From positions 1 through 40,537 of the forward strand of contig CAZMBV010000002.1 in NCBI GenBank assembly GCA_964564335.1: a stretch of DNA of 40,537 nucleotides, read 5' to 3'. Below are positions 1 through 33,058 of the stretch, piece by piece. The notes under the pieces are model-generated. The model was not told the origin of the DNA and searched no databases. It saw only the letters and a list, made by a program, of their open reading frames with translations. The translations under genes were made by a program, and so were the position numbers. The stretch's first letter is position 1. Each line of letters opens with the position of its first letter. This stretch comes from an uncultured archaeon (lineage in GTDB: Archaea; Asgardarchaeota; Thorarchaeia; Thorarchaeales; Thorarchaeaceae).

Positions 1-692
1 TGACCGCATCCGAAGAGGTGCACTGGTCTATCCGGTGGCAGATACTTCTTTGCAGCTAGCGTCACTCGGACAATATCTGCATATCTGTACATTTCCATCA
101 ATGGAACAACACCTCCTATTGGGTAAACATCAAAATCCAGTGCTCCCATAGCTTTAGCTGACTGTTCTCGTAAGTCTTCGAAGATTCCACCCTGAACAGT
201 CCCAGCAAGCATCATATCCCCTTTGAGACCTACAGACATTCTTGCCCGTTCTAGAGAGAGTTTGACATCTTTCTCTACTTGCTCTCTCTCGACATCAGGT
301 TTTGAGAAAGCATCCAGAATAGTTCCTATATCGGTCTTGATTTGCTTCTGAAATTCTATTATGGCAATTGGGTCTATTTCTTCATCGGGAAGATCATGGA
401 AGTACATCTGGAAGGTTCCAGAGTCGGTCATGATTGGATGATTGAAATCTAAGAGAGCATGGACGCCCTCTGCTATCGCCTTCTCTCTGTATCTTTCATG
501 AGAATTAATAATGTATGAATTTGTAATTACCATCTGAAACCCAAATTCTTCAACAAGTGCCTTAGGTGGAATAATAGATTTACCCGGGTGAATTACTGGC
601 ATGAGCAATGGTGTCTTCACTGTTCCATGTTTGGTCGAGAATCTACCTAATCTCGCAAGACCATCCTTTACTTTGATTTCGAAGTTTGCCAT
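1..692 (-). CDS. tgtA: tRNA-guanine(15) transglycosylase (archaeosine TGT), N-terminal ~230 aa. The gene continues past the left edge of the window.
   Basis: Absent from the supplied ORF track because no stop codon lies in the window. The reverse complement from ATG (complement of 690-692) reads MANFEIKVKDGLARLGRFSTKHGTVKTPLLMPVIHPG...IMTDSGTFQMY...FDVYPIGGVVPLME...DRPVHLFGCG and stays open to position 1. These are typical TGT TIM-barrel N-terminal signatures. Confidence 0.85.
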   Translation of the reverse strand, partial: MANFEIKVKDGLARLGRFSTKHGTVKTPLLMPVIHPGKSIIPPKALVEEFGFQMVITNSYIINSHERYREKAIAEGVHALLDFNHPIMTDSGTFQMYFHDLPDEEIDPIAIIEFQKQIKTDIGTILDAFSKPDVEREQVEKDVKLSLERARMSVGLKGDMMLAGTVQGGIFEDLREQSAKAMGALDFDVYPIGGVVPLMEMYRYADIVRVTLAAKKYLPPDRPVHLFGCG

Positions 693-781
693 TTGTGATC
701 CCCAATGAAACCTTAATGGCTGGGCAATGAATCTTTCTCTATGTCATAGCTACAATAGTACTGTTTAAGACACAACTATCA

Positions 782-2083
782 TTGAGTAGAGTAATGAGTG
801 AATCAACTGCATTACTTGTCCAGCGAAGAAAATACAGAGACCCCGATTTACTGAACGAGTTTGCCGCACTTGCTACTACAGCAGACTATGAAATTATAGG
901 TACATTTGATATAGTCAGTGACCCGTCTGCTAAGTTTGGTATACGCAGTGGCAAAGCTGATGAGATCAAGACTTGGATTGAGGTCAATAAGCCCGATTTT
1001 GTTTTATTCTCTCCTCAACTCAAATCGAGCCAAATGTTCAGACTCATGGAGTTGTGGGAAACAGAGGTTAGGGACAGAGCACAAATCATTCTTGAAATTT
1101 TTGATAAGCATGCTAATACACAACAAGCAAAACTACAGATCGAGCAAGCTCGGCTCAAATACGAATTACCTTTTGAGCGACATCAGATTCGGATGAGATT
1201 AGCGAAGGAGCATACTGGAGACCGTCCAGTAGCAGAACAGGTCGGTGCTGGAGAAGACCTCCTAAATTTGAAAATACAGGAGCAACGTAGAAGGATATCT
1301 GTAATAACTGAGAAGCTTGAGAAGATATCTGAAGCACAAGTGCTGAAAAAGAAAAAGCGTGTAAAAGAAGGCTTTATTGAAATCGCACTAGCTGGTTATA
1401 CAAATGCGGGGAAAAGCACCCTCCATCACGCATTGACAGCATCCGGTGTGGAGATTGCTGACAAACTTTTCACTACTTTGGCTACGAAAGCGGCTGAACT
1501 TGATTTACCCGGCAGGCAGATTGTTCTTTCTGACTCTGTAGGTTTTATTAGTAGTCTCCCTAAAGCTTTGTTACAAGCATTCAATACAACCCTCATGGAA
1601 GTAGCTGACGCTGATATTATCATTCTTGTTGTTGATGCTTCTGACACAATCGAAGAGATGGATCGAAAAGTCGATACCTGCCTTGACACGTTCAATGAAA
1701 TTGGTGCTAATGGAATTCCAATAGTTACTGCACTCAATAAAATTGATCTTATGGATGAAAATGATGTACAAGAACGGGAAGATATACTAGCAGAGATTTC
1801 TGCTGCAGTTGTTCCTATTTCTGCAGAGACTCATGCGCATCTTGATGAACTCGTTGCCGCATTGGAACAAATACTACCACAACTTATCCTCTATTCAATT
1901 TCGTTGCCTTACGGCGATTTTGGAATGTCAATCATTTCAAGACTTCATGAGGATGCTATAATTGAATCGGAATCCTATAATGAAGATAGTATAACTATTA
2001 CTGCCCGTCTTAATTATGAGGTATTTCAGTCCCTAGAACGTGAGTTGAATCCCGGGAGTATCACTAAAATTATGCTCAGATGA
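782..2083 (+). CDS. hflX: GTPase HflX
   Basis: 433-aa ORF with the HflX N-terminal domain followed by a G domain (G1 GYTNAGKSTL, DSVGF, G4 NKIDL). The start is TTG 782 or ATG 794 (MSESTALL...). It is divergent from tgtA. Confidence 0.85.
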   Translation: MSRVMSESTALLVQRRKYRDPDLLNEFAALATTADYEIIGTFDIVSDPSAKFGIRSGKADEIKTWIEVNKPDFVLFSPQLKSSQMFRLMELWETEVRDRAQIILEIFDKHANTQQAKLQIEQARLKYELPFERHQIRMRLAKEHTGDRPVAEQVGAGEDLLNLKIQEQRRRISVITEKLEKISEAQVLKKKKRVKEGFIEIALAGYTNAGKSTLHHALTASGVEIADKLFTTLATKAAELDLPGRQIVLSDSVGFISSLPKALLQAFNTTLMEVADADIIILVVDASDTIEEMDRKVDTCLDTFNEIGANGIPIVTALNKIDLMDENDVQEREDILAEISAAVVPISAETHAHLDELVAALEQILPQLILYSISLPYGDFGMSIISRLHEDAIIESESYNEDSITITARLNYEVFQSLERELNPGSITKIMLR

Positions 2084-2116
2084 GTATTCTTTCAAATATG
2101 TTTGGATTCATTTCAC

Positions 2117-2137
2117 TTTTTTTTGTTTTTTCATTTT
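2117..2137 (+). terminator. Oligo-T tract (T8-G-T6...TTTT) just after the hflX stop; candidate archaeal intrinsic terminator
   Basis: Sequence cacTTTTTTTTGTTTTTTcaTTTTg lies 34 nt after the hflX TGA. Archaeal RNA polymerase terminates at T-runs. The tract falls inside the 2080-2292 extension of the giant ORF, which I consider non-coding. Confidence 0.35.
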
Positions 2138-2292
2138 GCTTACATTCTGTGCCAACAATTATAACGACTAGTACTCTACAAAAAATGTTCCGCTGTTGGG
2201 AGAAGTCACTCAGGAGGGATGATATTCACGTTGGAAATTATCGTTACTTCCTGTTTTTCCAAGGCGATCTGGGTCAAGGAGGAGTGTCAGAT

Positions 2293-5200
2293 ATGCGTGG
2301 ACGAAATATTCGGAATCAAGTTATTTCTGTGCTTATAATTTGTAGTTTCATTGTTGGAATCATTACACCTGCGGTATCAGCTGGTCAAATTGCTGTGGAG
2401 TATGAGGAATCTAAAAAAGAACCGGCTGAGCGGTATCATCTTGATTCCATATACATTTTTTTTGATAAAAATGACGAAATAATGAAGACAATCGTTGATA
2501 TCGTTACGGAGATAGTATCATTCAAGCTGGAATCAATCGTCATGATTCCAGTAGACACATACTCTGATTTTAGTTATCAGTTATCAGATGAACCTTGGAT
2601 TGCAGTTTATGCATTCCAATCCAATCTAACACATGTTCAATTCCCAGACATATCAATAACTTGGCAACAGTTTTACAAATCGCTTGCACAACATCAGTCT
2701 ACGCACCACATTATAGGAATGGCTAACACACTCTCTATGGAAGAATACATCATCGATGATATTCCTGATATTATTGACAGTCAAGCTGAGCAAACAGATG
2801 CATTACTTCTTGCAGTACATGATATTTGGTCAATTACAGACGTTATTGAAAGTCGTGCAGATGAAGATGAGAAATACAAATCCGCATCTGAGGACTTACG
2901 AAGCATTGCCCTCACACTTTTTGCTGATAACTTCAACGAGATATTTTCACGCACATTGGAACCAGTTGATGTTGTTGGTCAAATTGATCAGGTTGCTCTT
3001 GAAGAACGGACACAGGAAATGTGGGCTGAACACGCACCCACAATAGAACCTGCGGTGTATAAAAAACTCGATAATGGGACTTTGGTCGAGATACCGAAAG
3101 ATCAAATTCCGGAAGACTTCTCTCCTGTTATCAAGCTTAGCTCTGCAATTACCCCTCCTGGAAGTGATTTCTCTCTTGGAAAGATACCCTTGTTTTCTGG
3201 GCTCAGAGGACCAATAGGTGAGATTGTTAATGTTCTCCTGAAGTTACTCTCCGATTCCGACAGTGTTGATATTTCAATCGACAGCGACACAATGGATTCA
3301 ATCCGTACTATTTTCGAGATTATTCAACCGTTCATCGGGATCGTATCCAACTATGACAGTTCCTCTCCAATGAAGTCCATAATACAGGCCTTGGCTAATG
3401 AGTTCCCCTTCATCGAAGAATATAAGGTCTACATAGAGGTTCTTTTGAAGTGCTTATTCAGTCTTAGAGGAAGCCCATCCGAGATTATTGGTACTGTAAC
3501 AGAAGCAGTCATATCACTCCTGCCAGAGCTCTTTCCTGGTGAAATAACTGATTTCGTAGTAGATCTACTGGGAGTCAATAACGGTCTTGCAGATGTGTTG
3601 ACTGATGTAGTCGATGGAGGAAAGGGTGTATTTGATTCCCTACTCGCATTCTTTACAAACAACGTATTGACTTCACTATTCAATAAGACTCTTGTTGCCA
3701 CATTTGGTCTAGCCCAATCAACTGCTGATGTTTTGTTACCTCGAATGAGTGCATTTTCACAATCAATTATTAATTTCATCAGTACACTTGACTTTGAGAC
3801 CTTCGTAAATGATGTAGCTGAAGAATTATTGACTGATTCTTTAGGTCTCATGACTGATGCAGACGGAGAAGAAGTCCTTGCTCGTATCATGTCTGTTGTT
3901 AAGTTGAGTCTGACAGTTCTCGATGCTGTAGACTCATTTACAATCGAGTCTGTGGTTTCGGTTGTTGCTCAACTCGTTGTTGAATTCTTTGGAGCTCCTG
4001 CTCTGCTTGACGATCCTGAAGATATTGCGAGAGGTATGATGGGCATAGTCAAGGACTATATGGAAGGTTCAGTGACAAATGTTGCAGGTTTCCGTGATGA
4101 ATTAGAATCTGTTGTGACTCCTTCCATCACAGGGTTTGCAAGTCCGTTAGGAGATTTGCTTATAGATGTAATAACAATGATTGCAGGCTTCTATAATGAT
4201 GGATTTAGTCCGTCTGCAGTCCCAGATATGTTTGAGGTTTTTGAGGGTCTTGTTGATGAGATGGGTTTCACACCTTCAGTCCACGATGATATCATAGGTG
4301 CGATTAATGGTGTCCTTAGACCTGTCCTTGGTATTATTGCAGAGGTATCCAATAGTGATTCTCTTCGAGAGATGGTCAGTAAAACACTTAGTGAATTTGA
4401 TACTGAAATTGGAAACATACCTGGTCTTGTTGTAGATGTAATTTCCTACCTTGACCTTGAGGGTACATTGGATGCTATAGTTGGTGCTTCAGATGTACTC
4501 GATTCTTTGGCGAAAATCTCTACAGGCATCATCAAGATTGCTGAAGCTGCTCAGGGTAAGTCATTCGAAGGAGTCATGCATGGCATTTTGATTTCTGTAG
4601 CTGCTATTACCGGCGTAATGCCTGCTTTTGATGATGTCCCTATTGATGCATTCTTGGAACTGCTTAAGGCATTCTTTCCTGAAGTATTTGGTATTGAGCG
4701 AGAAGACGCTCCGATGCCCTCTCAGGTCATTGCCAATGTGACTACAATTGTCGGTGGCTACCTTGGCCTTGAATTTGATACAGGAATGCTTAACGAGTTT
4801 CTCAAGTCTCTGATGGACACAAAGGACATTTTCACAAAAGGTGTTAGATGGCTTACAGGCATGCTCTTTGATTGGTTGACCGGTGAACTAACTCCCTTAT
4901 TCAAAGACCTGACTGATATGATTGAAGAAGCCCTTGGAAATTCCGGTGAGATTCTAGGATACCATAGCAAAATTCCAATTGGGGTGGGTGATTGGAACCT
5001 ATTCGACCTGACCATAGATCTTGGGCTCATCGCAGACTTTGAGATAGATCCGACTCCACTCTTCGATATCGTTAGAAGTGTAATCTTCGATGGCCGCGAG
5101 GTATTTTCACTCGATAGCCTAACGGATTTCTTTGGCGTCCTCTTCAAGTGTTTTTCAATCAGCCCTAGGTTCTACGCAGATATGGGTGTTGAGGAATTTG

Positions 5201-8200
5201 ACACCTCAAAGAATCCTATGCTCAAATTTCTGTTGGAGTCCTTTGGTCTAGAATTGACCTTCTCCGGTCATGCCCATTTTGTCCTTAACCTATTCACTTT
5301 CAGGGGTGGCGTTTTTGAATGGGACCAGTTCATGCGTGTATTCGAGTGGGGCTTCAATATCAAGATCGGCGTGTCACGGACGTTTACTTTCTTGGACTTT
5401 ATTACAGGCGGAGCTGCAGGTGCGCTCAATGCAATTGGTGAGTATATTGGCTTGGATGCTATCACAGTCACTGTGTTCTTTGCTGTAGAACTCGATATCG
5501 TAAAGCGTGCGGCAACAGCAATTGCTCCCGAGGTCTCAACACTTACAATCGCCATCGCCCTTGGAGCGACTGCGCATATTGGATTAGACCTTCTTATCTG
5601 CGAACTTGCCATAGATGGGACTATAGAGATTATATTGACGTTCTTCCAAGACCTGGCGAGTAGCAGTCCGATGCAGATCACATTGAATCTGATATTTACC
5701 ATATCCGTCACTGTCGACCTTTTACTGGTCTCAAAGGATTTTGATTTTGAGATACTGAATAAACTCTGGGACCTTAGTCCGCATAAAGGTGAAGATGAGT
5801 ACGCGAATTCAGGAATTGGATTCGATACGGACGGAGACGGCCTCGGAGACGAATACGAGGCTACGTTGCCCGGATATGACCTCAATAATCCCGATACCGA
5901 CGGGGACGGTGCAGGTGACAAACTCGAAGTCCAAACGATGTTCACTGACGGCACTAATCCAGATACTGATGGGGACGGATTATTAGATGGTGAAGAATGG
6001 GAATTGGGTACTAATCCTCACTTCGTGGACTCTGACTGGGATGATATCACAGACTTTGAAGAAGTCCGTGTCTATGGGACCAATCCCCTCTGTATGGATA
6101 CCGATGGGGATGGGCTAAATGATGACTATGAGATCTACACCAAATGGAATATTACCACAGTCACTCCAACAGTCACAGAGGTCATCATCGGGGGAGTAGC
6201 GTACAACGACCACACAGACCCGCTGAATCCTGATACCGATGGGGACTCTCTCCTTGATGGAGATGAGGGTCCGATGGGTGCTTACTACGGTCTCTCCTTG
6301 CTCTATAATGAAACTGCTTCTGATCCCGACCCGTTGATTTTCAATAATGGGTACACTCATCCTCTCGACGCTGACACGGATGATGACTCCTACTTGCAAT
6401 TGTACAATGGAGTGGTGGACAGTCAAGCGTTGTTATTCCTGAAAGATATGAACGATGGTGCAGAGGTCCATGGGCTGCTAGCAGTCTTCTATGACGATGA
6501 TGGTATTCCTGAGGAGAAACGTCTGTTCACTAATCCTTGCAATCCCGATTCTGATGGAGACACTGGCATTACAGACAGAACCCCACAGGCAAGTCTGTGG
6601 ATAAATAGCGATGGGTTCGAGCTTGCTCAAGACCCCCCAACTAATCCCTTGGATGCAGACTCTGACGGAGACGGGTTAATTGATGGCATTGAAGGTATCC
6701 TCAGTCCGACGAGCAGTCACACTAATCCCAATATGGCCGATACTGATGGAGACGGGCTCTTTGATATGCATGAGCTTCTCTTGGGCTGTGACCCTCGTTC
6801 AACTGATACAGATGGAGACCTCATAACTGACGGCGACGAGTTCTACATCTTCTTTACGAACCCCTTAATTGAAGATACAGATTTTGATGCGTTAAAAGAT
6901 GGTGAAGAGGTCTTCCTGTGGCATTCAAATCCCCTCATCGACGATTCTGATGGCGATGGAATTCGAGATGGAGATGAGGTCTTACTGTACGGTTCGGACC
7001 CCATGGACGAGGATGGAGACAATGATGGGCTGACTGACTTCCAAGAGATCATGATATACTATACCGACCCATTTTCGTTTGATACAGACCTTGATGGTCT
7101 TGGTGACGGCGCTGAGATATTTACTTACAATTGTGACCCGCTTTCCTGGGATACAGACGGCGACTCGATAACTGAACCAAATGAGTTTGGTGAGATGACT
7201 TGGCCGATGAGTGATTATGATGAGGTCATGATTCACCATACAAATGCCACCGCTACTGATTCAGATCTTGACGGGCTCTCTGATGCCATAGAGCTGTATG
7301 TAGGCGCTGGAGAAATTCCATGGATGGATCCAATTCAGCTTGACCCAATGAACGCCGATACAGACGGAGACAATCTTACCGATGGTTGCGAAATGATGTT
7401 GGTGAATTATACCGCTATTACGTATCCCTATATTGCTGTGAGTATAGTCTTCGTGCATAGCACATCGCCCGTTCTAAGTGATACAGATGGAGACCTATTG
7501 ACAGACTATCAAGAAATTGTTACCTTTAAGACTGATGCATCAAATGTCGATACCGATAATGATACCATCAGTGACTGGTGGGAAGTCTGGGTCTACAACA
7601 CGTCAGCTATCAATGCAGATACTGATGGAGACAATTTACCAGACATCAATGAGACATTGACAGAGGTATGGCCTTATGGTCCCTGGCCGCCTGCGGGTAG
7701 CCCTACTGAACCAGGCCAGTTCTCAATGGCAACTGAACATCCTGGAGCGGTATTAGCATCAGCTGAATATTTGACTTCTGCCACAGATCCTGACTCGGAT
7801 GATGATTGGTTGCCGGATGGAGCAGAAGTGCAATTCTACATGACGAATCCGATGGATGCAGATAGTGACCATGACGGTACAAACGACGGGTTGGAATTTG
7901 ATACAGATTTTGACGGTCTTCTGGACGCCTATGAGTTCAGCCTGGGACTGCAGTATGTTGTGGGTGGAGGGATTATGAATCCTGATTCCGACGGAGATGG
8001 GCTTTTGGACGGTGCTGAAGTGAACATATACCATACAGACCCACTTAACCGTGATTCAGACGGAGATGGCATCCCGGATGGATTCGAGGTAGCGACTGGC
8101 TCCGACCCGCTGTTTTGGACGTACTTTTCGGTGCTTGCTCCAGTAGGGACTTATGTCCCTACAGTGCCAATACAATTTGAGGCGCTTAACTATACTGCGT

Positions 8201-8982
8201 TTGATAGTATGTGGTATCGGTATGGAGATGGTTTATCGTGGAGTTCCAATGTATCACTGACATATAGTGCAGTAAGTGGTAGATGGGAGGATGCAAGCGT
8301 ATCTCTACCAATAGGCGTCTATCTCTTCGAGATATTTGGTGAGGATGTTAACGGCACGGAGCGTACATACAGCGGCTCATTTACTGTTTCAGAAGAAGGT
8401 AGTGCGGTTTCAATCGGATCAAGGATGGTGATCATGACTCCCGTCAATGGTGGGGTAACATATTCTTCCACCGCAGTGAGAGTGCAGAACCTTACATCAT
8501 TCGAGTCGATGTGGTATCGATACAAAACTTCTGGACCTTGGAGTGACAACATCACTCTGACCTATAGTAATGATTCACTTCACTGGTCTGATGTATCTGC
8601 TGAGTGGCCTCCAGGAGAATATGTCCTCCAGGTGTTCGGAGAGATTGCTGATGGTACAGAGTTCATGGCAGAAATAACATTCACGGTACCAGCACCATTT
8701 CCATGGCTAATTGTTATTGGCGTAGCAGCTGCGGCACTGTTTGGACTAACCCTTATCACCTACAGGTTCTGGTGGATGAAGCGGGGCACAAAATCGGAAA
8801 AGAGTCCTGATACACCTCCCGATCCAGGTACAACAGAAGAGAAACCTACGCCTAAGAGAAAAAGAAAGACTCCTGTTACGCAAGAAGAACCAACGCAGGT
8901 TAAGACGAAACCATCGACTAAGAAGAGTACGGGAACGTCTTCGAAAAAGAAAGCCACTACGGCTGAGGAGGGAGGCAAGTAA
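2293..8982 (+). CDS. Giant (~2230 aa) type-I membrane surface protein: signal peptide, ~1170-aa domain-less acidic region, ~26 thrombospondin type-3-like Ca-binding repeats, two tandem beta-sandwich-like domains, TM helix, Lys/Thr/Pro-rich tail
   Basis: The track ORF is 2080-8982. I prefer ATG 2293 because GGAGG lies 8-9 nt upstream and the N-terminus MRGRNIRNQVISVLIICSFIVGIITPAVSAG-Q is a classical signal peptide. Repeats have the form DTDGDGLxDxxE. The TM helix is PWLIVIGVAAAALFGLTLITYRFWW, followed by a basic tail. Confidence 0.85.
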   Translation: MRGRNIRNQVISVLIICSFIVGIITPAVSAGQIAVEYEESKKEPAERYHLDSIYIFFDKNDEIMKTIVDIVTEIVSFKLESIVMIPVDTYSDFSYQLSDEPWIAVYAFQSNLTHVQFPDISITWQQFYKSLAQHQSTHHIIGMANTLSMEEYIIDDIPDIIDSQAEQTDALLLAVHDIWSITDVIESRADEDEKYKSASEDLRSIALTLFADNFNEIFSRTLEPVDVVGQIDQVALEERTQEMWAEHAPTIEPAVYKKLDNGTLVEIPKDQIPEDFSPVIKLSSAITPPGSDFSLGKIPLFSGLRGPIGEIVNVLLKLLSDSDSVDISIDSDTMDSIRTIFEIIQPFIGIVSNYDSSSPMKSIIQALANEFPFIEEYKVYIEVLLKCLFSLRGSPSEIIGTVTEAVISLLPELFPGEITDFVVDLLGVNNGLADVLTDVVDGGKGVFDSLLAFFTNNVLTSLFNKTLVATFGLAQSTADVLLPRMSAFSQSIINFISTLDFETFVNDVAEELLTDSLGLMTDADGEEVLARIMSVVKLSLTVLDAVDSFTIESVVSVVAQLVVEFFGAPALLDDPEDIARGMMGIVKDYMEGSVTNVAGFRDELESVVTPSITGFASPLGDLLIDVITMIAGFYNDGFSPSAVPDMFEVFEGLVDEMGFTPSVHDDIIGAINGVLRPVLGIIAEVSNSDSLREMVSKTLSEFDTEIGNIPGLVVDVISYLDLEGTLDAIVGASDVLDSLAKISTGIIKIAEAAQGKSFEGVMHGILISVAAITGVMPAFDDVPIDAFLELLKAFFPEVFGIEREDAPMPSQVIANVTTIVGGYLGLEFDTGMLNEFLKSLMDTKDIFTKGVRWLTGMLFDWLTGELTPLFKDLTDMIEEALGNSGEILGYHSKIPIGVGDWNLFDLTIDLGLIADFEIDPTPLFDIVRSVIFDGREVFSLDSLTDFFGVLFKCFSISPRFYADMGVEEFDTSKNPMLKFLLESFGLELTFSGHAHFVLNLFTFRGGVFEWDQFMRVFEWGFNIKIGVSRTFTFLDFITGGAAGALNAIGEYIGLDAITVTVFFAVELDIVKRAATAIAPEVSTLTIAIALGATAHIGLDLLICELAIDGTIEIILTFFQDLASSSPMQITLNLIFTISVTVDLLLVSKDFDFEILNKLWDLSPHKGEDEYANSGIGFDTDGDGLGDEYEATLPGYDLNNPDTDGDGAGDKLEVQTMFTDGTNPDTDGDGLLDGEEWELGTNPHFVDSDWDDITDFEEVRVYGTNPLCMDTDGDGLNDDYEIYTKWNITTVTPTVTEVIIGGVAYNDHTDPLNPDTDGDSLLDGDEGPMGAYYGLSLLYNETASDPDPLIFNNGYTHPLDADTDDDSYLQLYNGVVDSQALLFLKDMNDGAEVHGLLAVFYDDDGIPEEKRLFTNPCNPDSDGDTGITDRTPQASLWINSDGFELAQDPPTNPLDADSDGDGLIDGIEGILSPTSSHTNPNMADTDGDGLFDMHELLLGCDPRSTDTDGDLITDGDEFYIFFTNPLIEDTDFDALKDGEEVFLWHSNPLIDDSDGDGIRDGDEVLLYGSDPMDEDGDNDGLTDFQEIMIYYTDPFSFDTDLDGLGDGAEIFTYNCDPLSWDTDGDSITEPNEFGEMTWPMSDYDEVMIHHTNATATDSDLDGLSDAIELYVGAGEIPWMDPIQLDPMNADTDGDNLTDGCEMMLVNYTAITYPYIAVSIVFVHSTSPVLSDTDGDLLTDYQEIVTFKTDASNVDTDNDTISDWWEVWVYNTSAINADTDGDNLPDINETLTEVWPYGPWPPAGSPTEPGQFSMATEHPGAVLASAEYLTSATDPDSDDDWLPDGAEVQFYMTNPMDADSDHDGTNDGLEFDTDFDGLLDAYEFSLGLQYVVGGGIMNPDSDGDGLLDGAEVNIYHTDPLNRDSDGDGIPDGFEVATGSDPLFWTYFSVLAPVGTYVPTVPIQFEALNYTAFDSMWYRYGDGLSWSSNVSLTYSAVSGRWEDASVSLPIGVYLFEIFGEDVNGTERTYSGSFTVSEEGSAVSIGSRMVIMTPVNGGVTYSSTAVRVQNLTSFESMWYRYKTSGPWSDNITLTYSNDSLHWSDVSAEWPPGEYVLQVFGEIADGTEFMAEITFTVPAPFPWLIVIGVAAAALFGLTLITYRFWWMKRGTKSEKSPDTPPDPGTTEEKPTPKRKRKTPVTQEEPTQVKTKPSTKKSTGTSSKKKATTAEEGGK
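5824..8112 (+). repeat. In-frame array of ~26 D-x-D-x-D-G-x-x-D-x-x-E (thrombospondin type 3 / calcium-binding) repeats inside the giant CDS
   Basis: Recurring DTDGDGLGD, DTDGDGAGD, DTDGDGLLD, DSDGDGIRD, DTDGDNLTD, DSDGDGIPD and similar units, each usually followed by xE and an N-P-x-x-x-D linker. Confidence 0.85.
8131..8690 (+). repeat. Tandem duplication of a ~90-aa membrane-proximal domain (protein-level repeat)
   Basis: Copy 1 reads ...FEALNYTAFDSMWYRYGDGLSWSSNVSLTYSAVSGRWEDASVSLPIGVYLFEIFGEDVNGTERTYSGSFTV. Copy 2 reads ...VRVQNLTSFESMWYRYKTSGPWSDNITLTYSNDSLHWSDVSAEWPPGEYVLQVFGEIADGTEFMAEITFTV. Confidence 0.8.
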
Positions 8983-8983
8983 A

Positions 8984-27036: not shown

Positions 27037-27603
27037 ATGGTCACTGCACTATTCAAAGTTGTACTCATGGGTGACGGAAGCGTCGGAAAGACCAGTCTTC
27101 GTCGAACCTACATGGGCGAAGGTTTCAGAGCTAATTACATGATCACCATCGGAGCGGACTTCGCCGTCAAGAAAATGCAACTTGAAGGTGGACATGATGT
27201 TTCGATACAGATCTGGGATCTCGCAGGTCAGGAGCACTTCAAGAGCGTCCGTTCAACCTTCTACAAAGGAGCTCAAGGTGCACTAGCAGTGTATTCCACA
27301 GTCGAGCGTGGTTCCTTCGACAATCTCATGAACTGGGTAGATGAATGCTGGACTAATGCTGGCAAGAAGATACCAATAGTTCTCATTGCTAACAAGATAG
27401 ACCTTAGAGACCAATTCAAGGATAATCCTGTTATGGCACAGACAATTGTCACAACTGAAGAGGGTCAAAAACTCGCAGCCGATATTGCTAGTCAAGGAGT
27501 AATAACTTCCTTCCTTGAAACAAGTGCAAAAACTGGTATAAATGTAGAAGCCGCTTTCTTGGAATTAGCAATCAAGATCCTTGAAGCTGGCGGTCTCGCC
27601 TAG
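27037..27603 (+). CDS. Rab/Ras-like small GTPase without a C-terminal prenylation Cys
   Basis: G1 is LMGDGSVGKTSL, switch I is TIGADF, G3 is WDLAGQE, G4 is NKIDL and G5 is ETSAKTGINVEAAF. FYKGAQGAL is Rab-like. AGGTGG lies upstream of the ATG. Confidence 0.85.
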   Translation: MVTALFKVVLMGDGSVGKTSLRRTYMGEGFRANYMITIGADFAVKKMQLEGGHDVSIQIWDLAGQEHFKSVRSTFYKGAQGALAVYSTVERGSFDNLMNWVDECWTNAGKKIPIVLIANKIDLRDQFKDNPVMAQTIVTTEEGQKLAADIASQGVITSFLETSAKTGINVEAAFLELAIKILEAGGLA

Positions 27604-27606
27604 GAT

Positions 27607-28833
27607 TCATTCGTCGTTTAAATTGACAATATCTAAATCTCTTAGAATAGTTCCAAAGAGATCACTTGCTGCAGAATGAAGTATCTCATTATTGTTGGAG
27701 TGAATATCCAACCGTAATTTTGAGATACTATCCCCTTTGTTTCCAACCACAGTTAGTGTGATTGCAAGTTGAGTTTCTGAATAATTGCTCTTTGCCATTC
27801 CTGCAATGACCCCCATGAATGTGTTTTCACGTTCCATATTCTCATTCTGAAAGATGTAGAGATTCTTGTTTTCCATAATAGTATGCAATGCTCGATAGAG
27901 ATTTCTTGCCTCAGCACTAACTGTATGTTCCCTATTCCATTGTTCCATATCTGACTTCATATGGATAAACTCGTCAGCACCCATTTTTAATGGACTAAAT
28001 TGACTATAGATAGATCTGATGAATACATTACCTGCTTTTGCCGCTAGATCCTCTCCACTATCATCAACAAGGCGCACAGATGTTATGATTTCTCCCTCAA
28101 TGCACTCCCCTTGTATATTGAATCCAAAAATCAAAGAACCTGCATTATCTGGTTGTATCTCCTCAATGAATTGTGTTAGCGAATCCATTGGACTGAGACA
28201 TTCATTTGGATATGCAAGAATAGAAACGCTCACTTCGAAAATTGGAGAGTCCCCCTCATTCTTGATAGTTATTCCGTATTCCAAACTATCGGGTGTTATT
28301 GTATAATCGTTTATAACAAGTACATCATCTGTTGTTCGAAGAGGGATTGCATCCGTTTCTAGAAGGATATCTGTGGGATTCTCTTTTGATTTTGGAATGT
28401 ATGCTCCCACAGGAGCCTCTTCACCATAAATCTGCAACCATCTAAGTGCAAAGCCGACGGTCTCTCTAACACTCTCTGTATTGTCTCCCATATATTTCTC
28501 CAATATAGGGATTGCATCAAGTCTTCGTGTGAATGCTAACATTCCTGCAGCAGCAGCTCGAACTTGAGGACTATCGTCATTAAGAGCAATATCAAGGCAC
28601 TCAAATCCATCTTTCCCCCATTCACCTAGTTTGCAGACTGCCAGAAGTTTGATATCCTCATCCCCAGTGAGAGCAGCATCCTTAGTAGCTTGAATACTTG
28701 TGATCTGCTCTAACATGACTGTAATTTCGTCATCAGACGACTTCAGAACTTGTTTTACAGCCTTCCGTAACCGATTAAGTGATTCCCCACCACCCATAGC
28801 TCGTGACAAGTTTCTATCTGTCTTTCTAGACAA
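27607..28833 (-). CDS. HEAT-repeat (PBS-lyase HEAT-like) protein with a beta-rich middle region and an alpha/beta C-terminal region of unknown function
   Basis: 408-aa ORF with a TTG start. HEAT units include NDDSPQVRAAAAGMLAFTRRLDAIPILEKYMGDNTESVRETVGFALRWL. The remainder has no motif I recognise. Confidence 0.6.
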   Translation of the reverse strand: MSRKTDRNLSRAMGGGESLNRLRKAVKQVLKSSDDEITVMLEQITSIQATKDAALTGDEDIKLLAVCKLGEWGKDGFECLDIALNDDSPQVRAAAAGMLAFTRRLDAIPILEKYMGDNTESVRETVGFALRWLQIYGEEAPVGAYIPKSKENPTDILLETDAIPLRTTDDVLVINDYTITPDSLEYGITIKNEGDSPIFEVSVSILAYPNECLSPMDSLTQFIEEIQPDNAGSLIFGFNIQGECIEGEIITSVRLVDDSGEDLAAKAGNVFIRSIYSQFSPLKMGADEFIHMKSDMEQWNREHTVSAEARNLYRALHTIMENKNLYIFQNENMERENTFMGVIAGMAKSNYSETQLAITLTVVGNKGDSISKLRLDIHSNNNEILHSAASDLFGTILRDLDIVNLNDE

Positions 28834-28971
28834 AGTCTACCCTCTTGAAAACCTGCAACCTCGAACCATTTAATCATTGTTCTTATTCTGCAGACATCGT
28901 ACCTATTCATGCTGTACTCGCAACACTTTTACGTATTATAAAGTTCGGCACCTTACGAACCAGCCATGTGA

Positions 28972-30105
28972 GTGAACCCTATGGAAACCCAAGAACAGAC
29001 TATCTTCTTGAAACCAACAATCCTCAAACCACAGGCAGAACATGGTGCAGATATCACGCGACGTTTTGCAATGAATCGCGTTGGGCGCATGTTTGCAGCT
29101 GCACTTCAAGATAGGAGCATTCGTCTTTATGCTGCTGAAGACGCAGAGGAAATGCAGCTTATGCAAGATGATTTTCTCAGCACATCTCTTGCATTTAGTC
29201 CGAGGGGAGATATAGTTGCCTCTGGAACTGTTGAACGTGTTGTGAAACTCTGGGATATTCGTACGGGCGAATGTGTCGGAACTCTTGAAGGTCATACATA
29301 TCCTGTTCTCTCATTAGCATTCTCTCCAGATGGTAGTAAGCTTGTATCCGGTAGTGGTGATACAACTCTGATCATTTGGGATATGGAAAATCAATCAAAG
29401 ATTCGCCAAATGAAGGGGCATGGGTTCTACGTTGTTGCTGTTGATTGGGATCCAAATGACAATAGAATTGTTTCTGGCTCAGTCGACGCAAACATTTGCG
29501 AGTGGGATTCAAATAATGGTGAGATTATTGCACGTCACTCTGAACATCGAACAGCAGTGAGGGAAGTGCGATTCAACCCTGACGGTTCAAAACTAATTTC
29601 TGGTTCCTCTGACCTGACCATGGTGCTATGGGACTCTACATTCAAACCTATGAAAGTCGATGGAACTCTTCAAGCTCACGAGAGCGAAGTTCGTGCTCTT
29701 GGCTTTAGTCATGATGGGAAATATCTTGCATCTGGGTCATCTGACAAGACAATATTACTTTGGGATATGGATACTCTTCAGGTTCAAGGCCAAGCCTCAA
29801 CAATGGGTGAAATCGATGGGATCGAATGGTATCCAAATCGACACGCGTTCATTTCATCTGATGGTACAGGGGCGATTCTTCGATGGGAAGTTGAAGATAT
29901 GGGTGCAATGTTGAAACCCTTTCAAGACTTACTTGCTGAGATAGAAACTGCAAATGATCCAAATCGACGTGATGAATTCATTCAAAAATTTGACGAGATT
30001 TGTGGACAATATGATGCAGCTACACTACAGACAAAGAATATGTTTTATGCTATCTGGCAATGCAAACGTGCGTTAGGACTACTCAAGGGCAGCATTAAAA
30101 AATAA
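28972..30105 (+). CDS. WD40 beta-propeller protein with a short C-terminal helical extension
   Basis: Repeated GH...S(L/V)AFSPDG..L(V/A)SGS.D.T(I/L)..WD units, for example GHTYPVLSLAFSPDGSKLVSGSGDTTLIIWD and AHESEVRALGFSHDGKYLASGSSDKTILLWD. The start is GTG 28972 or ATG 28981. Confidence 0.85.
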   Translation: MNPMETQEQTIFLKPTILKPQAEHGADITRRFAMNRVGRMFAAALQDRSIRLYAAEDAEEMQLMQDDFLSTSLAFSPRGDIVASGTVERVVKLWDIRTGECVGTLEGHTYPVLSLAFSPDGSKLVSGSGDTTLIIWDMENQSKIRQMKGHGFYVVAVDWDPNDNRIVSGSVDANICEWDSNNGEIIARHSEHRTAVREVRFNPDGSKLISGSSDLTMVLWDSTFKPMKVDGTLQAHESEVRALGFSHDGKYLASGSSDKTILLWDMDTLQVQGQASTMGEIDGIEWYPNRHAFISSDGTGAILRWEVEDMGAMLKPFQDLLAEIETANDPNRRDEFIQKFDEICGQYDAATLQTKNMFYAIWQCKRALGLLKGSIKK

Positions 30106-30109
30106 GATA

Positions 30110-30658
30110 TTAGAACATAGGTTCCTTCGGAGCCGATTTTGATTCCTTAATCATTTTCTTACAGAGATTGACATAGGCTTCTTCTACATTCTCTCCAGTT
30201 AGTGCACTCGATTCAACGTAGATGAATCCATTCTCTTTTGCATAGGCTTGTCCATCTTTTTTAGTAACTGCTCTACTTTCTACCAAATCTATTTTGTTAG
30301 CAACAACAACAAGAGGAATTTCTTTTCCAGTGTTTACGAAGGTTTCCTCCTTCCATCTATCAATATTGAGAAACGTTCTCCGTCTTGTTACATCATAGAG
30401 GAGGAGACCGCCTCTTGCTCCACGGTAGAAACCCTGACGCACAAACTCGAATCGCGGTTGTCCTGCAAGGTCCCAACATTGCAACGTGATCTGAGCATCG
30501 ATGTCAGGAATCTCTAGTCGCTTAACTGCAAAGTCTGCGCCTATGGTCCGTTTGTAATCAGAGTCAAAAGTGTTCTGAGTGAACCTAGTGGTCATCGCGG
30601 TCTTTCCAACTGCACCGTCTCCTAACATCACAATTTTGAAACGGAATTCCGCGCTCAT
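30110..30658 (-). CDS. Rab/Ras-like small GTPase without a C-terminal prenylation Cys
   Basis: G1 is MLGDGAVGKTAM, switch I is TIGADF, G3 is WDLAGQP, G4 is NKIDL and G5 is SSALTGENVEEAY. FYRGARGGL is Rab-like. Confidence 0.85.
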   Translation of the reverse strand: MSAEFRFKIVMLGDGAVGKTAMTTRFTQNTFDSDYKRTIGADFAVKRLEIPDIDAQITLQCWDLAGQPRFEFVRQGFYRGARGGLLLYDVTRRRTFLNIDRWKEETFVNTGKEIPLVVVANKIDLVESRAVTKKDGQAYAKENGFIYVESSALTGENVEEAYVNLCKKMIKESKSAPKEPMF

Positions 30659-30791
30659 TTGAATAAGCTCCTAATCATTTGAAAGGGTGCAAGCTCATTT
30701 AAATCTCTACTGTGAATGAAGACAGTCTCACATGATTTAATAGGGAAACGCGCAAATTGACAATCAGTCCCTAGTTTGATGGTGCATTTTA
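30659..30791. promoter_or_regulatory. Shared divergent promoter region of GTPase 2 and the Roadblock gene, with two TATA-like boxes
   Basis: TTTAAAT (30698-30704) lies about 40 nt from the GTPase ATG on the minus strand. TTTAATA (30736-30742) lies about 50 nt before the Roadblock ATG. Both are A/T-rich boxes of archaeal TATA type. No experimental support. Confidence 0.3.
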
Positions 30792-31175
30792 ATGGAACGA
30801 CCTGACTATCGCGAACTCCCAAAGATCTTAGAACGAATGAACAAAGAGGGTGGATACTCCGCTTCAGTTCTTGCTAGAGGCCAAGGCCTTCTTGTTGCCT
30901 CCGCAACATCCCCTACGACAAATCAAGATGTTGTGGCTGCGATGTGTGGTATAATTGCTGATGTGGCAGAGCGAGTTAGGAAGGAGCTTGCACTTGGAGA
31001 TGTTCGTGACATCAGTCTTAGATGTGCTATGGGCAAAGCTGTATTCAAGAGAGTTGGTGCACGCGGAGACGATGTGCTCATTATCGGTGCTATTATGCCT
31101 AAGAACGTGCGTTATCATTCACGCGCAATTGGTAAAGCAACTACAGGCATTCGAAAACTCATGGGATACAAATAG
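30792..31175 (+). CDS. Roadblock/LC7 (MglB-like) domain protein
   Basis: 127-aa ORF with the Roadblock pattern: GGYSASVLARGQGLLVASATSP...DVVAAMCGIIADVAERVRKELALGDVRDISLRCAMGKAVFKRVG...DVLIIGAIM. Confidence 0.75.
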   Translation: MERPDYRELPKILERMNKEGGYSASVLARGQGLLVASATSPTTNQDVVAAMCGIIADVAERVRKELALGDVRDISLRCAMGKAVFKRVGARGDDVLIIGAIMPKNVRYHSRAIGKATTGIRKLMGYK

Positions 31176-31264: not shown

Positions 31265-31591
31265 TTGAACACTGAGCAGGATGAAACTGTATCAGAGGAA
31301 GACGATGATAGGATAGAAGTCGTCTTATTCAAATCTGATACATGCGCTTTTTGTCCAAGGGCTGAGGAAGTGATTCGAGAAACGATTGAAGACTTTGGTC
31401 CCAACACCTTCAAACTAAACATCATCAATGTGAGTGAGAATCCAGATTTAGCAGAGAAGTATGGTATCTTTGCACTACCTACTGTGATGATTTCTGGGGT
31501 ATCAATCACTGGAATCCCTGAACCTGATATGTTGATGAAGATGATACTTGGTGCTAAAGTAATATCAATGAAAAAGGATGAGTCCAAATGA
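31265..31591 (+). CDS. Thioredoxin-fold / glutaredoxin-like small protein (CxxC = CAFC)
   Basis: TTG start. Sequence is VVLFKSDTCAFCPRAEEVIRE...NPDLAEKYGIFALPTVMISG. ATGA overlap with the downstream KaiC-like gene. Confidence 0.7.
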   Translation: MNTEQDETVSEEDDDRIEVVLFKSDTCAFCPRAEEVIRETIEDFGPNTFKLNIINVSENPDLAEKYGIFALPTVMISGVSITGIPEPDMLMKMILGAKVISMKKDESK

Positions 31592-32334
31592 GCGACTATG
31601 AAATTGAAAGAGTAAAAACAGGTATTACTGGTCTTGATGAGCTGATAGAGGGTGGTTTCCCACGCGGGGACACCATACTGATTGCTGGTAAGGCAGGAAC
31701 AGGCAAGAGTATTCTTGCAACACAGTTCATCTACAAGGGTGCCACTGACTACGATGAACCTGGTGTGTTTGTCACATTGGAAGAACCACCTCACCTGATT
31801 AAACGAAACATGCTTAGGTTTGGTATGGATTTGGAGGCGCTCATCAAACAAGGCAAGATTTCCATTGTTGACCTTTCTCCATCCAAAGAAATAACCCCGG
31901 TAACAATTGGTGAATATCCAAGTTTCGATCTTTCGGGACTGCAAGCCATTATCATGAACCACATCAAGAAAATAGGTGCCAAGCGGGTTGTTTTGGATAC
32001 TCTATCAATCATGGCATACAAATTCAGAAGTCGTGATATACTTCGTGAAGAATTCTTTAAACTCGCTGCCATGATAACAAGAACTGGATGTACACTCATT
32101 ATCACAAGTGAGATTCCTGCTCAAGATCATGGTTTGGGTGTTTTTGATATCGAAGCGTTTTTGGCTTCAGGTGTCATTGTGCTCTACAATGAGAAAATTT
32201 CCAACACATCACGTTCTCGTTCAATAGAAGTACTCAAATTGAGGGGTTCAAAACACAGTTCAAGAATTCACTCCATGAGGATTACAGACGAAGGTATAAG
32301 AGTGTGGCCTGGTGAAATAAGTCCAGGACATTGA
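31588..32334 (+). CDS. KaiC-like / RecA-superfamily ATPase (single domain)
   Basis: TGITGLDELIEGGFPRGDTILIAGKAGTGKSILATQFIYKG contains the Walker A motif. Walker B is RVVLDTLS. VLKLRGSKHS is typical of archaeal KaiC homologs. Confidence 0.8.
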   Translation: MSDYEIERVKTGITGLDELIEGGFPRGDTILIAGKAGTGKSILATQFIYKGATDYDEPGVFVTLEEPPHLIKRNMLRFGMDLEALIKQGKISIVDLSPSKEITPVTIGEYPSFDLSGLQAIIMNHIKKIGAKRVVLDTLSIMAYKFRSRDILREEFFKLAAMITRTGCTLIITSEIPAQDHGLGVFDIEAFLASGVIVLYNEKISNTSRSRSIEVLKLRGSKHSSRIHSMRITDEGIRVWPGEISPGH

Positions 32335-32344
32335 TAACTAGGAT

Positions 32345-33058
32345 GTGAACAAGACGAACAGTTCAGGTGGAACCGCCCCAACTCCTGCAAGGGCAAGTCC
32401 TATGATCAGCGAATTGGTCAAATTCGGCCAGCTGACACAGGTTTCCTACATGTTAGTAGGTCCACTTGGTTCAGGTAAGACTACTTATGCTGAGGCTTTT
32501 CTTGCTGAAGGTATAGCTCAGGGATTTCCAGCTGTTTTTGTAACAACAGATGTTTCTCCTAGAGTAATTCGAAATGATATGAGTCGACACGGGTGGACTA
32601 CTGAAATTCAAGAAGCATCCGGTCAGTTTGTCTTTATTGATGGATATTCTGAGCGCATGGGTGCACCAAAAACAGGATCCGCTCGTTCTTTAGCTAAAGT
32701 TGATGATATCAGTGAATTGGGAATAGTCCTATCAGAAGTTTTAGAGGATCTCGTTGTAGCTCGAATTGTAATTGATAGTCTCTCAACACTAATTCTTCAC
32801 TCTAACGAAGCGACCATGCCACGAGCTGTACAACGTCTTAGTGGGAGGGTCACGCAGAGTTCCCACAGTATCATGTATGTTCTAGAAGAAGGAGTTCATG
32901 ATGAGAAGACATATGCAACATTCTCCTATCTAGCAGATGCAGTTCTACGATTTCGCATTAATGATAGTGGAAATCTCCCTAAACATGAAGTTCGAATGGA
33001 AAGGATGCGTGGAACAGAAACATCTCGCGAATGGCATGATTTTGTGATTGAGCGATAG
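32345..33058 (+). CDS. Second, more divergent KaiC/RecA-superfamily ATPase
   Basis: Walker A is MLVGPLGSGKTTYAEAFLAEG and Walker B is RIVIDSLS. MERMRGTE corresponds to the KaiC-like LK.RG motif. The start is GTG 32345 or an internal ATG (MISELVKF). Confidence 0.65.
   Translation: MNKTNSSGGTAPTPARASPMISELVKFGQLTQVSYMLVGPLGSGKTTYAEAFLAEGIAQGFPAVFVTTDVSPRVIRNDMSRHGWTTEIQEASGQFVFIDGYSERMGAPKTGSARSLAKVDDISELGIVLSEVLEDLVVARIVIDSLSTLILHSNEATMPRAVQRLSGRVTQSSHSIMYVLEEGVHDEKTYATFSYLADAVLRFRINDSGNLPKHEVRMERMRGTETSREWHDFVIER

Follow-up and report, generated by a model that had tools for sequence, protein, structure and literature searches.

Two giant adjacent genes in a thorarchaeal contig

The window analyzed here, i.e., the whole 40,537-nt stretch of DNA from an uncultured Thorarchaeaceae archaeon (contig CAZMBV010000002.1), carries two giant genes lying end to end on its forward strand, which we call P1 and P2 (Table 1). 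A preliminary description of this stretch had reported two open reading frames (ORFs) of about 2230 and 2630 residues, together occupying 14.6 kb or 36% of the window. This agrees with our translations, which give 2229 and 2630 residues and a combined 14,584 nt (36.0%). The first of the two frames is open from 2080 to 8982 (+ strand), and we placed the P1 start at the ATG in position 2293, which agrees with the N termini of the orthologs. A 209-nt AT-rich intergenic region (2084-2292) separates P1 from an HflX-like gene and contains a GGAGG resembling a Shine–Dalgarno (SD) sequence. At the P1/P2 junction, the 1-nt separation (TAA-a-ATG) with GGAGGGAGG upstream, as previously described, can be read directly. 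Since no tandem repeats were found at the DNA level, the repeat arrays are old and not an assembly artifact.

We scanned both proteins for hydrophobic segments using the Kyte–Doolittle scale and judged signal peptides by the (-3,-1) rule. Both proteins have two strong hydrophobic segments, one at each end (residues 6-33 and 2131-2158 in P1, 1-25 and 2597-2626 in P2), and basic residues flank every segment on the side predicted to be cytoplasmic. The last 110 residues of P1 and the last 61 residues of P2 gave no match to an archaeosortase-type CTERM sorting model in an NCBIfam scan (E ≤ 10).

Table 1. Coordinates of P1, P2, their parts, and selected neighboring genes in the window
Feature	Position	Strand	Description
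SD-like GGAGG	2278-2282	+	10 nt before P1 start codon
P1 gene	2293-8982	+	2229 residues; predicted giant type I membrane protein
P1 signal peptide	2293-2382	+	Residues 1-30; MRGRNIRNQ-h region-AVSA/GQ (slash, cleavage site)
P1 N-domain	2383-5802	+	Residues 31-1170; ~1140 residues, half of P1
Beta-rich hydrophobic module in P1 N-domain	5245-5742	+	Residues ~985-1150; low-confidence model
P1 TSP3 region	5803-8127	+	Residues 1171-1945; ~27-31 DxDxDGxxDxxE repeats, predicted Ca2+-binding
Two tandem ~90-residue beta-sandwich domains, P1	8128-8697	+	Immunoglobulin (Ig)-like, membrane-proximal; internal duplication visible in sequence
P1 transmembrane (TM) helix	8701-8766	+	Residues ~2137-2158; conserved in orthologs
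P1 cytoplasmic tail (predicted)	8767-8979	+	71 residues, basic, K/T/S/P/E-rich, ending in ...EEGGK
Coupling junction	8967-8986	+	GGAGGGAGG at 8967-8975 in final P1 codons, TAA 8980-8982, a 8983, ATG 8984-8986
P2 gene	8984-16876	+	2630 residues; predicted giant multipropeller membrane protein
P2 N-terminal hydrophobic segment	8984-9058	+	Residues 1-25; MRAK + h-region + PTAP; signal peptide or uncleaved signal anchor
FG-GAP propellers 1 and 2	9251-12958	+	Residues ~90-1325, boundaries approximate; most conserved part of P2
Beta-sandwich insert in propeller 1	10130-10693	+	Residues ~383-570; from structural model
P2 middle domain	12959-14083	+	Residues 1326-1700; Asp-box-like SVDNGSTW, weakly sialidase/GH93- and BNR-like
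C-terminal FG-GAP propeller region	14084-16753	+	Residues ~1701-2590; ~14-16 blades by motif spacing
P2 C-terminal TM helix	16772-16861	+	Within residues 2597-2626; followed by short basic tail AKRREVE
Ras-family small GTPase	27037-27603	+	
HEAT-repeat protein	27607-28833	-	
WD40 propeller	28972-30105	+	
Ras-family small GTPase	30110-30658	-	
Roadblock/LC7 protein	30792-31175	+	

P1 combines a novel N-terminal domain with a long TSP3 array

P1 has the complete set of features of a Sec-exported type I membrane protein: an n-h-c signal, an AxA site, a stop-transfer helix, and a positive-inside charge distribution. The AxA cleavage site is kept in its orthologs, whose signal peptides follow the pattern ...PQAVWA/GQ. 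The only Pfam family in P1 is TSP3_bac, which it matches with 61.1 bits (cut-off 25). Between residues 1178 and 1932, we counted 19 strict DxDxD[GSDNA]xxDxxE and 31 DxDxD motifs, mostly 22-23 residues apart, which makes the "about 26" Ca2+-binding repeats of the preliminary description a fair count. A dockerin identity for these repeats was considered and dropped since there is no Pfam dockerin match. Between the repeats and the membrane, the two Ig-like domains weakly resemble Y_Y_Y, with an E value of 0.011 that is below threshold. Past the TM helix, the basic cytoplasmic tail of P1 orthologs is 45-75 residues long, and a KKGG is conserved at its end because the SD-like GGAGG of P2 overlaps the final P1 codons.

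The N-domain has no relatives in Pfam, NCBIfam, or the PDB, where sequence and profile searches returned only designed helical bundles. Its AlphaFold2 (AF2) model, built on a shallow alignment of 12 sequences, is poor, with a predicted local distance difference test (pLDDT) score of 50 and a predicted template modeling (pTM) score of 0.35. It suggests a small alpha/beta domain (residues ~50-110), a long helical region (~300-880), and a beta-rich module. In the model, this module consists of ~8 long (13-20 residues), amphipathic, and very hydrophobic strands, and the alignment shows the segment to be conserved in all the Asgard P1 orthologs. A Foldseek search with the low-confidence model gave nothing below E 0.1, and its outer-membrane-barrel-like matches are not trustworthy. 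When the N-domain was used in a full hidden Markov model (HMM) scan against 1.84 billion representative proteins, only 97 matches were obtained; the full-length proteins among them have 2043-2326 residues, and every named one is an Asgard protein annotated as "hypothetical protein." Word-indexed protein searches gave only 10-11 matches, nearly all labeled partial, even with a diverse profile; P1 orthologs were therefore found by tblastn on the loci and by the full HMM scan.

We also found distant paralogs of P1 (P0194, P0201, P0213, P0209, and P0144) that share only its N-terminal ~300 residues and the TSP3 repeats. Most are 1500-1600 residues long, those with a name come from Hodarchaeales and Kariarchaeaceae, and P0144 (2800 residues) additionally has NlpC/P60 and PKD domains. 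These proteins suggest a broader family of TSP3 surface proteins in Asgard archaea. In two cases the P1 ortholog is broken: at L004:3255-6776 there is an in-frame TAG at codon 91, and in the 269-kb contig CAZLEV010000003.1 (L001/L016) P1 is split into ORFs of 664 and ~1500 residues. These could be pseudogenes, assembly errors, or instances of recoding.

P2 is a predicted chain of FG-GAP propellers

P2 scores well above the Pfam cut-offs for FG-GAP_3 (129 bits, cut-off 26.9) and FG-GAP (75 bits, cut-off 22.1), so that both module assignments of the preliminary description, TSP3 in P1 and FG-GAP in P2, hold above the curated thresholds. Residues 26-1225 were modeled confidently by AF2 (pLDDT 82.4, pTM 0.76), as ~15 four-stranded blades arranged in two propellers. 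These two propellers carry invariant DxDxDG Ca2+-loop motifs. Along the whole of P2 there are ~17 loops of this type, in which many aspartates are invariant across Asgard. The "more than 20" blades given earlier are therefore plausible, and spacing makes a count of ~29-31 for the whole of P2 plausible as well. DxDxDG motifs are known from TSP3 repeats and FG-GAP hairpins to bind Ca2+, and the P1-P2 pair could then hold several dozen Ca2+ ions.

How P2 is anchored is less straightforward. The signal peptide and the single C-terminal TM helix that had been described for each protein are borne out for P1, and the C-terminal TM helix is borne out for P2. The N-terminal segment of P2 has no AxA site: it ends in ...FGAIPTAP, with a Pro after a conserved Ala, and a conserved motif VP-x-x-P. 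Its n- and h-regions are present, but cleavage is uncertain since the AxA site is missing, which makes the label "single-pass" doubtful. In fused orthologs (see below), the same segment is, by sequence layout, an internal TM segment, and the AF2 model shows a ~60-residue disordered linker after it. Unfused P2 may thus be anchored at both ends, beside the P1 helix, rather than being single-pass.

We considered whether P2 might be part of a machine that processes or binds surface glycans, with propellers like those of PL11 rhamnogalacturonan lyases, lambda-carrageenase, or sialidase-type enzymes and with P1 as an accessory scaffold. P2 gives weak, subthreshold Pfam and PDB matches to RGL11, the CGLA propeller, and YesW/YesX. 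Its middle domain has one clear Asp-box and weak PDB matches to sialidases and GH93 (E 0.005-0.4), and PF13088 is matched in some P2 homologs, the middle domain here being without a Pfam match. The beta-sandwich insert is, from its model, a candidate ligand-binding module and could be a carbohydrate-binding module (CBM). However, these matches all score near or under the curated thresholds, and the shared propeller fold accounts for them; the insert has no relatives in Pfam or by PDB sequence, CBMs included. Sialidases keep an Arg triad, whereas in an alignment of 13 sequences, read without structure-based residue mapping, the middle domain has no Arg that is invariant or nearly so. We therefore consider a glycan machine very unlikely.

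Antisense ORFs of 90-330 residues (e.g., 5268-5954, - strand), shared by 10-28 related loci, lie wholly within the conserved P1 and P2 coding regions, and the best interpretation is that they are shadow ORFs rather than genes.

The two genes are neighbors across Asgard archaea and are sometimes fused

The preliminary description had tied its idea of a partnership to the two genes being neighbors in relatives. We searched for loci with a P2 profile alone, keeping one genome per species, and then looked for P1 upstream by tblastn with three parts of P1. Among the 50 loci found, which span Thor-, Loki-, Hermod-, Njord-, and Heimdall/Hod-archaea and include Lokiarchaeum ossiferum, 47 have a P1 ortholog immediately before P2 in the same orientation; the remaining three have no upstream sequence. 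P1 is thus the upstream neighbor in every informative locus, a stronger outcome of the proposed neighbor check than could have been expected. P2 homologs number more than 130, mostly 2600-2700 residues long, and come from Thor-, Loki-, Heimdall-, Hod-, and Kari-archaea, including two L. ossiferum assemblies. Thor and Loki P2 are 40% identical over their full length. Close named homologs are labeled Thorarchaeota, and DNA near-identical to the window is present in salt-marsh metagenomes.

The junction is tight as well. Sixteen loci have a gap of 1 nt between the P1 stop and the P2 start, eight have one of 2-7 nt, and nine have one of 9-39 nt; the genes overlap by 1-8 nt in 6 loci, and a single locus has a 227-nt gap. 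All but one of the 40 unfused loci therefore have a gap no longer than 39 nt. The SD-like GGAGG lies within the final P1 codons, and most Thorarchaeota loci have the layout AAGGGAGGTGCxTAG-A-GTG.

In six loci, P1 and P2 form a single ORF. Four of these are complete at the 5' end and encode 4840-4902 residues, and two of the six reach the contig end. There are at least three types of fusion junction, found 1) in a clade of five loci (L006/L008/L024/L032/L038), 2) in L034, and 3) in the divergent protein P0084, and complete ORFs joined in these ways encode about 4700-4900 residues. The fusions run from the P1 TM helix through the basic tail straight into the P2 N-terminal hydrophobic segment, and the resulting topology is coherent: ectodomain, TM, a cytoplasmic loop of ~45-70 residues, TM, ectodomain, TM. 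Gene fusions are classic evidence for a functional, and probably physical, partnership, here between P1 and P2.

The two proteins also diverge together. The TSP3 region is the best conserved part of P1, being collinear and 47-79% identical (mean 64%), and mean identity is 40% for the P1 N-domain and 46% for the first 800 residues of P2. Pairwise P1 distances correlate with those of P2, both when measured over the N-domain (r = 0.92) and when measured over the TSP3 region (r = 0.95). Such strong conservation of sequence and length is unlike that of typical fast-evolving adhesins and points to a constrained structural job.

These findings bear on two alternatives. P1 and P2 might be independent giant adhesins that share an operon for co-regulation without forming a complex. 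Unrelated adhesin genes are clustered in many prokaryotes, and each of the two proteins has its own export signal and anchor. However, both the number of repeats and the order of genes usually differ among independent adhesins, whereas here adjacency is universal across a phylum-level group, lengths are fixed, divergence is correlated, and the pair has been fused at least three separate times. We regard this alternative as unlikely. The second alternative, polymorphic-toxin delivery, comes from an automatic arCOG07561/arCOG10338 label. A supplementary table (PMC9834061) lists a group, ORTHOMCL19, with TSP3_bac, FG-GAP_3, and PQQ in the two cultured Lokiarchaeia; the pair may belong to this group, but the label does not fit either way. 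Both proteins end in a conserved TM helix and a short or low-complexity tail instead of a variable toxin domain, Pfam and NCBIfam detect no toxin family in either, and their conservation pattern is the opposite of polymorphic C termini. Among related loci, no third gene is conserved beside the pair, including a downstream immunity-like gene. Toxin delivery is thus largely refuted, and we dropped it as highly improbable.

Some loci depart from the simple arrangement or come with unexpected labels. L051 has a second P2 paralog in tandem (P1-P2-P2'), and three metagenome-assembled genomes (MAGs) each have two diverged P1-P2 pairs (L003 and L037, L004 and L029, L017 and L020), so that the genome of the window may itself have a second pair elsewhere. 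Two MAGs labeled "Nitrososphaerota" (L031) and "Bathyarchaeota UBA233" (L042) have a complete pair, with sequences that group with Njord- and Heimdall-type pairs. Mislabeling or misbinning seems likelier than a non-Asgard host.

The pair is expressed in L. ossiferum

Expression data come from the L. ossiferum orthologs (locus L022), for which four metatranscriptomic runs contain the P1/P2 junction. In three of the four, a single contig of 13,746-14,061 nt, with no mismatches, starts ~100 nt into P1 and continues until P2 ends. The depth of these contigs is 79-389, compared with 1-16 upstream in two runs and 500-3000 downstream. These RNA contigs are consistent with one bicistronic mRNA of ~14 kb. 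Together with the fusions at three or more junctions, the ~14-kb RNA contig lends weight to the co-production and partnership that the preliminary description had proposed.

A model for a two-subunit surface complex

Bringing together the domain content, topology signals, universal adjacency, fusions, correlated divergence, and L. ossiferum expression reported above, we propose, with a probability of about 0.6, that P1 and P2 are two subunits of one conserved, Ca2+-stabilized, and membrane-anchored surface complex found Asgard-wide. According to this model, the two genes would be transcribed together. The placement of the SD within the final codons of P1, together with the 1-nt spacer, would couple translation of P2 to the P1 end, giving products in fixed proportion. 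Both ectodomains would be exported via N-terminal Sec-type signals. P1 would be held by its C-terminal TM helix, with a basic tail of ~70 residues in the cytoplasm, and P2 by its own C-terminal TM helix, possibly also by an uncleaved N-terminal segment beside the P1 TM helix. Outside the cell, the two Ig-like domains of P1 would serve as a stalk for a Ca2+-loaded TSP3 "wire" and a large, novel, helical and beta-rich head. P2 would expose a chain of FG-GAP propellers with Ca2+ loops, the beta-sandwich insert, and the weakly BNR-like domain. We infer that the most likely role of the complex is that of a structural or adhesive element of the envelope, such as a scaffold, a spacer, or an adhesion module. 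The adhesion or matrix function put forward in the preliminary description may fit such an element, as may a role in the cell–cell contact of a possibly syntrophic archaeon.

Several points temper this proposal. The RNA evidence consists of assembled contigs and not reads, and the same runs have contigs of 65-92 kb, in which read-through, neighboring genes, or carry-over DNA can co-assemble. The topology is based on hydropathy, the charge rule, and motif inspection, and N-glycosylation sequons are enriched in the pair so weakly that they are of no use here. The physical P1-P2 heteromer, its surface location, and Ca2+ binding are all predicted from sequence. Conservation argues for a constrained structural role without identifying that role. 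Finally, a separate, homotetrameric surface-layer (S-layer) protein has been proposed for Hodarchaeales isolates (bioRxiv 10.1101/2025.02.26.640444), and the pair is therefore not the sole envelope candidate.

In L. ossiferum, there is no ordered S-layer, and unidentified "complex surface proteins" have been seen by electron cryotomography (PMC9834061). The pair is one candidate for these. Its traits are those that a core component of the envelope should have: a coding length of ~14.6 kb, presence in all sampled Asgard classes in the same order, strongly constrained sequence, and expression in culture. No known prokaryotes are more closely related to eukaryotes than Asgard archaea, and models of eukaryogenesis depend on how Asgard cells touch partner organisms. 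The pair is a concrete, testable candidate for the unexplained surface structures of these cells.

Genomic neighborhood and novelty

The window also encodes MTHFR-like, MtrH/MtrA-like, DUF2114, KaiC-like, WD40, and Roadblock/LC7 proteins, a family-B DNA polymerase, two Ras-family GTPases, and EF-2. The segment directly downstream of P2 (16950-21870) encodes one MTHFR-like, two MtrH-like, and one MtrA-like protein as well as DUF2114, and together these genes look like a corrinoid methyltransferase cluster in a nonmethanogen. Farther on, there is a cluster of eukaryote-like signaling genes (27037-31175), whose members are given in Table 1. A 765-residue ORF with no Pfam match (33120-35417, + strand) adjoins two KaiC-like ATPase genes (31588-33058).

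While the repeat modules themselves are ordinary, what is new is 1) the fixed, Asgard-wide, co-evolving, and sometimes fused P1-P2 pair, 2) the ~1140-residue N-domain of P1 with no known relatives, and 3) the evidence of expression in a cultured Asgard archaeon. Among the papers searched, we found none on Asgard FG-GAP or TSP3 proteins, although an earlier description is possible, and the only earlier annotation found for such proteins is automatic, with labels that are generic and in part misleading.

Comparison with known systems

The preliminary description had likened the pair to thrombospondins and integrins. The likeness stands for the repeat modules and fails for the other domains that define these proteins. 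P1 shares with thrombospondins and COMP the DxDxDGxxDxxE motif and a periodicity of ~23 residues, and a Ca2+-filled nonglobular repeat structure is to be expected. However, thrombospondins have TSP_C lectin-like, EGF, TSP1, or coiled-coil domains and P1 has none of these: there are no Pfam matches to TSP_C, EGF, or TSP1, and no PDB sequence matches for residues 1171-2229. The P1 repeats are also Cys-poor, with nine Cys in all of P1, and the disulfide pattern of animal TSP3 repeats is missing.

Long arrays of bacterial-type TSP3 repeats, as in P1, are found in Myxococcus CglD, part of a gliding motility adhesin complex, and in MtsC/MtsD, which are involved in cell–cell cohesion. No other NCBIfam models match P1 better, although these matches are in the repeat region only and far below the equivalog cut-offs (148.3 vs. 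400, 77.2 vs. 800, and 32.9 vs. 350 bits). The Myxococcus proteins differ from P1 in being bacterial lipoproteins or MYXO-CTERM proteins, and they have neither an equivalent of the N-domain nor an FG-GAP partner gene.

The blades of P2 are of the same type as those of CRTAC1, ITFG2, BBS2, and bacterial VCBS/ASPIC-type proteins. Among PDB sequences, it is these proteins that a P2 profile matches best (E 1e-6 to 3e-5), but each match covers one P2 propeller only, and architecture, membrane anchoring, and partner gene all differ. With the P2 model, Foldseek returned only multipropeller proteins, led by DDB1, SF3B3, and Elp2 (E 1e-13 to 1e-16), which match because they have several propellers on one chain. 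With template modeling scores of 0.13-0.30 and 8-11% identity to these cytoplasmic or nuclear WD40-type proteins, the likeness is one of fold class only. A cytoplasmic DDB1-like scaffold was dropped since P2 has a signal, TM segments, and Ca2+ motifs.

Integrins invite the closest look. Like an integrin alpha/beta dimer of metazoans and their relatives, the pair would have two anchored subunits, made in fixed proportion, with large ectodomains and short or modest tails, one of the subunits with FG-GAP blades and DxDxDG Ca2+ hairpins. Integrin alpha has a single seven-bladed propeller and thigh/calf domains (Integrin_alpha2), whereas P2 contains multiple propellers along with its insert and BNR-like domain, and its relation to integrin alpha-V is marginal in sequence (E ~5e-4 with a profile). 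The pair might go beyond such likeness and be an integrin-like TM receptor that relays outside-in or inside-out signals to the cytoplasm or the actin cytoskeleton via the P1 tail. Apart from the two anchored subunits and the Ca2+-loop propellers of one of them, the basic tail of 45-75 residues in P1 orthologs speaks for this, and so do the actin, small GTPases, and Roadblock proteins of the host group, some of them encoded within the window. Against it, beta-I/VWA, PSI, hybrid, and EGF domains are not found in P1 by Pfam, thigh/calf domains gave no Pfam match in whole-protein and segment scans of P2, and the P2 tail (...VIFAKRREVE) has no GFFKR motif, of which the ortholog consensus keeps only RR. 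Moreover, the P1 tail is of low complexity, its conserved KKGG end is explained by the overlapping SD of P2, and no gene for a cytoplasmic partner was found conserved nearby. A signaling receptor of this kind is improbable. In a more far-reaching version, which we consider quite unlikely, the pair would be an ancient two-subunit adhesion receptor predating the Asgard split and the main building block of the "complex surface structures," analogous but not homologous to integrins, linking Ca2+-dependent contact between cells or with partners to the cytoplasm via the P1 tail. If this reading were true, it would bear on how the archaeal ancestor of eukaryotes kept hold of its partners. For the two-subunit surface complex that we propose, the resemblance to integrins is one of analogy, not of membership.

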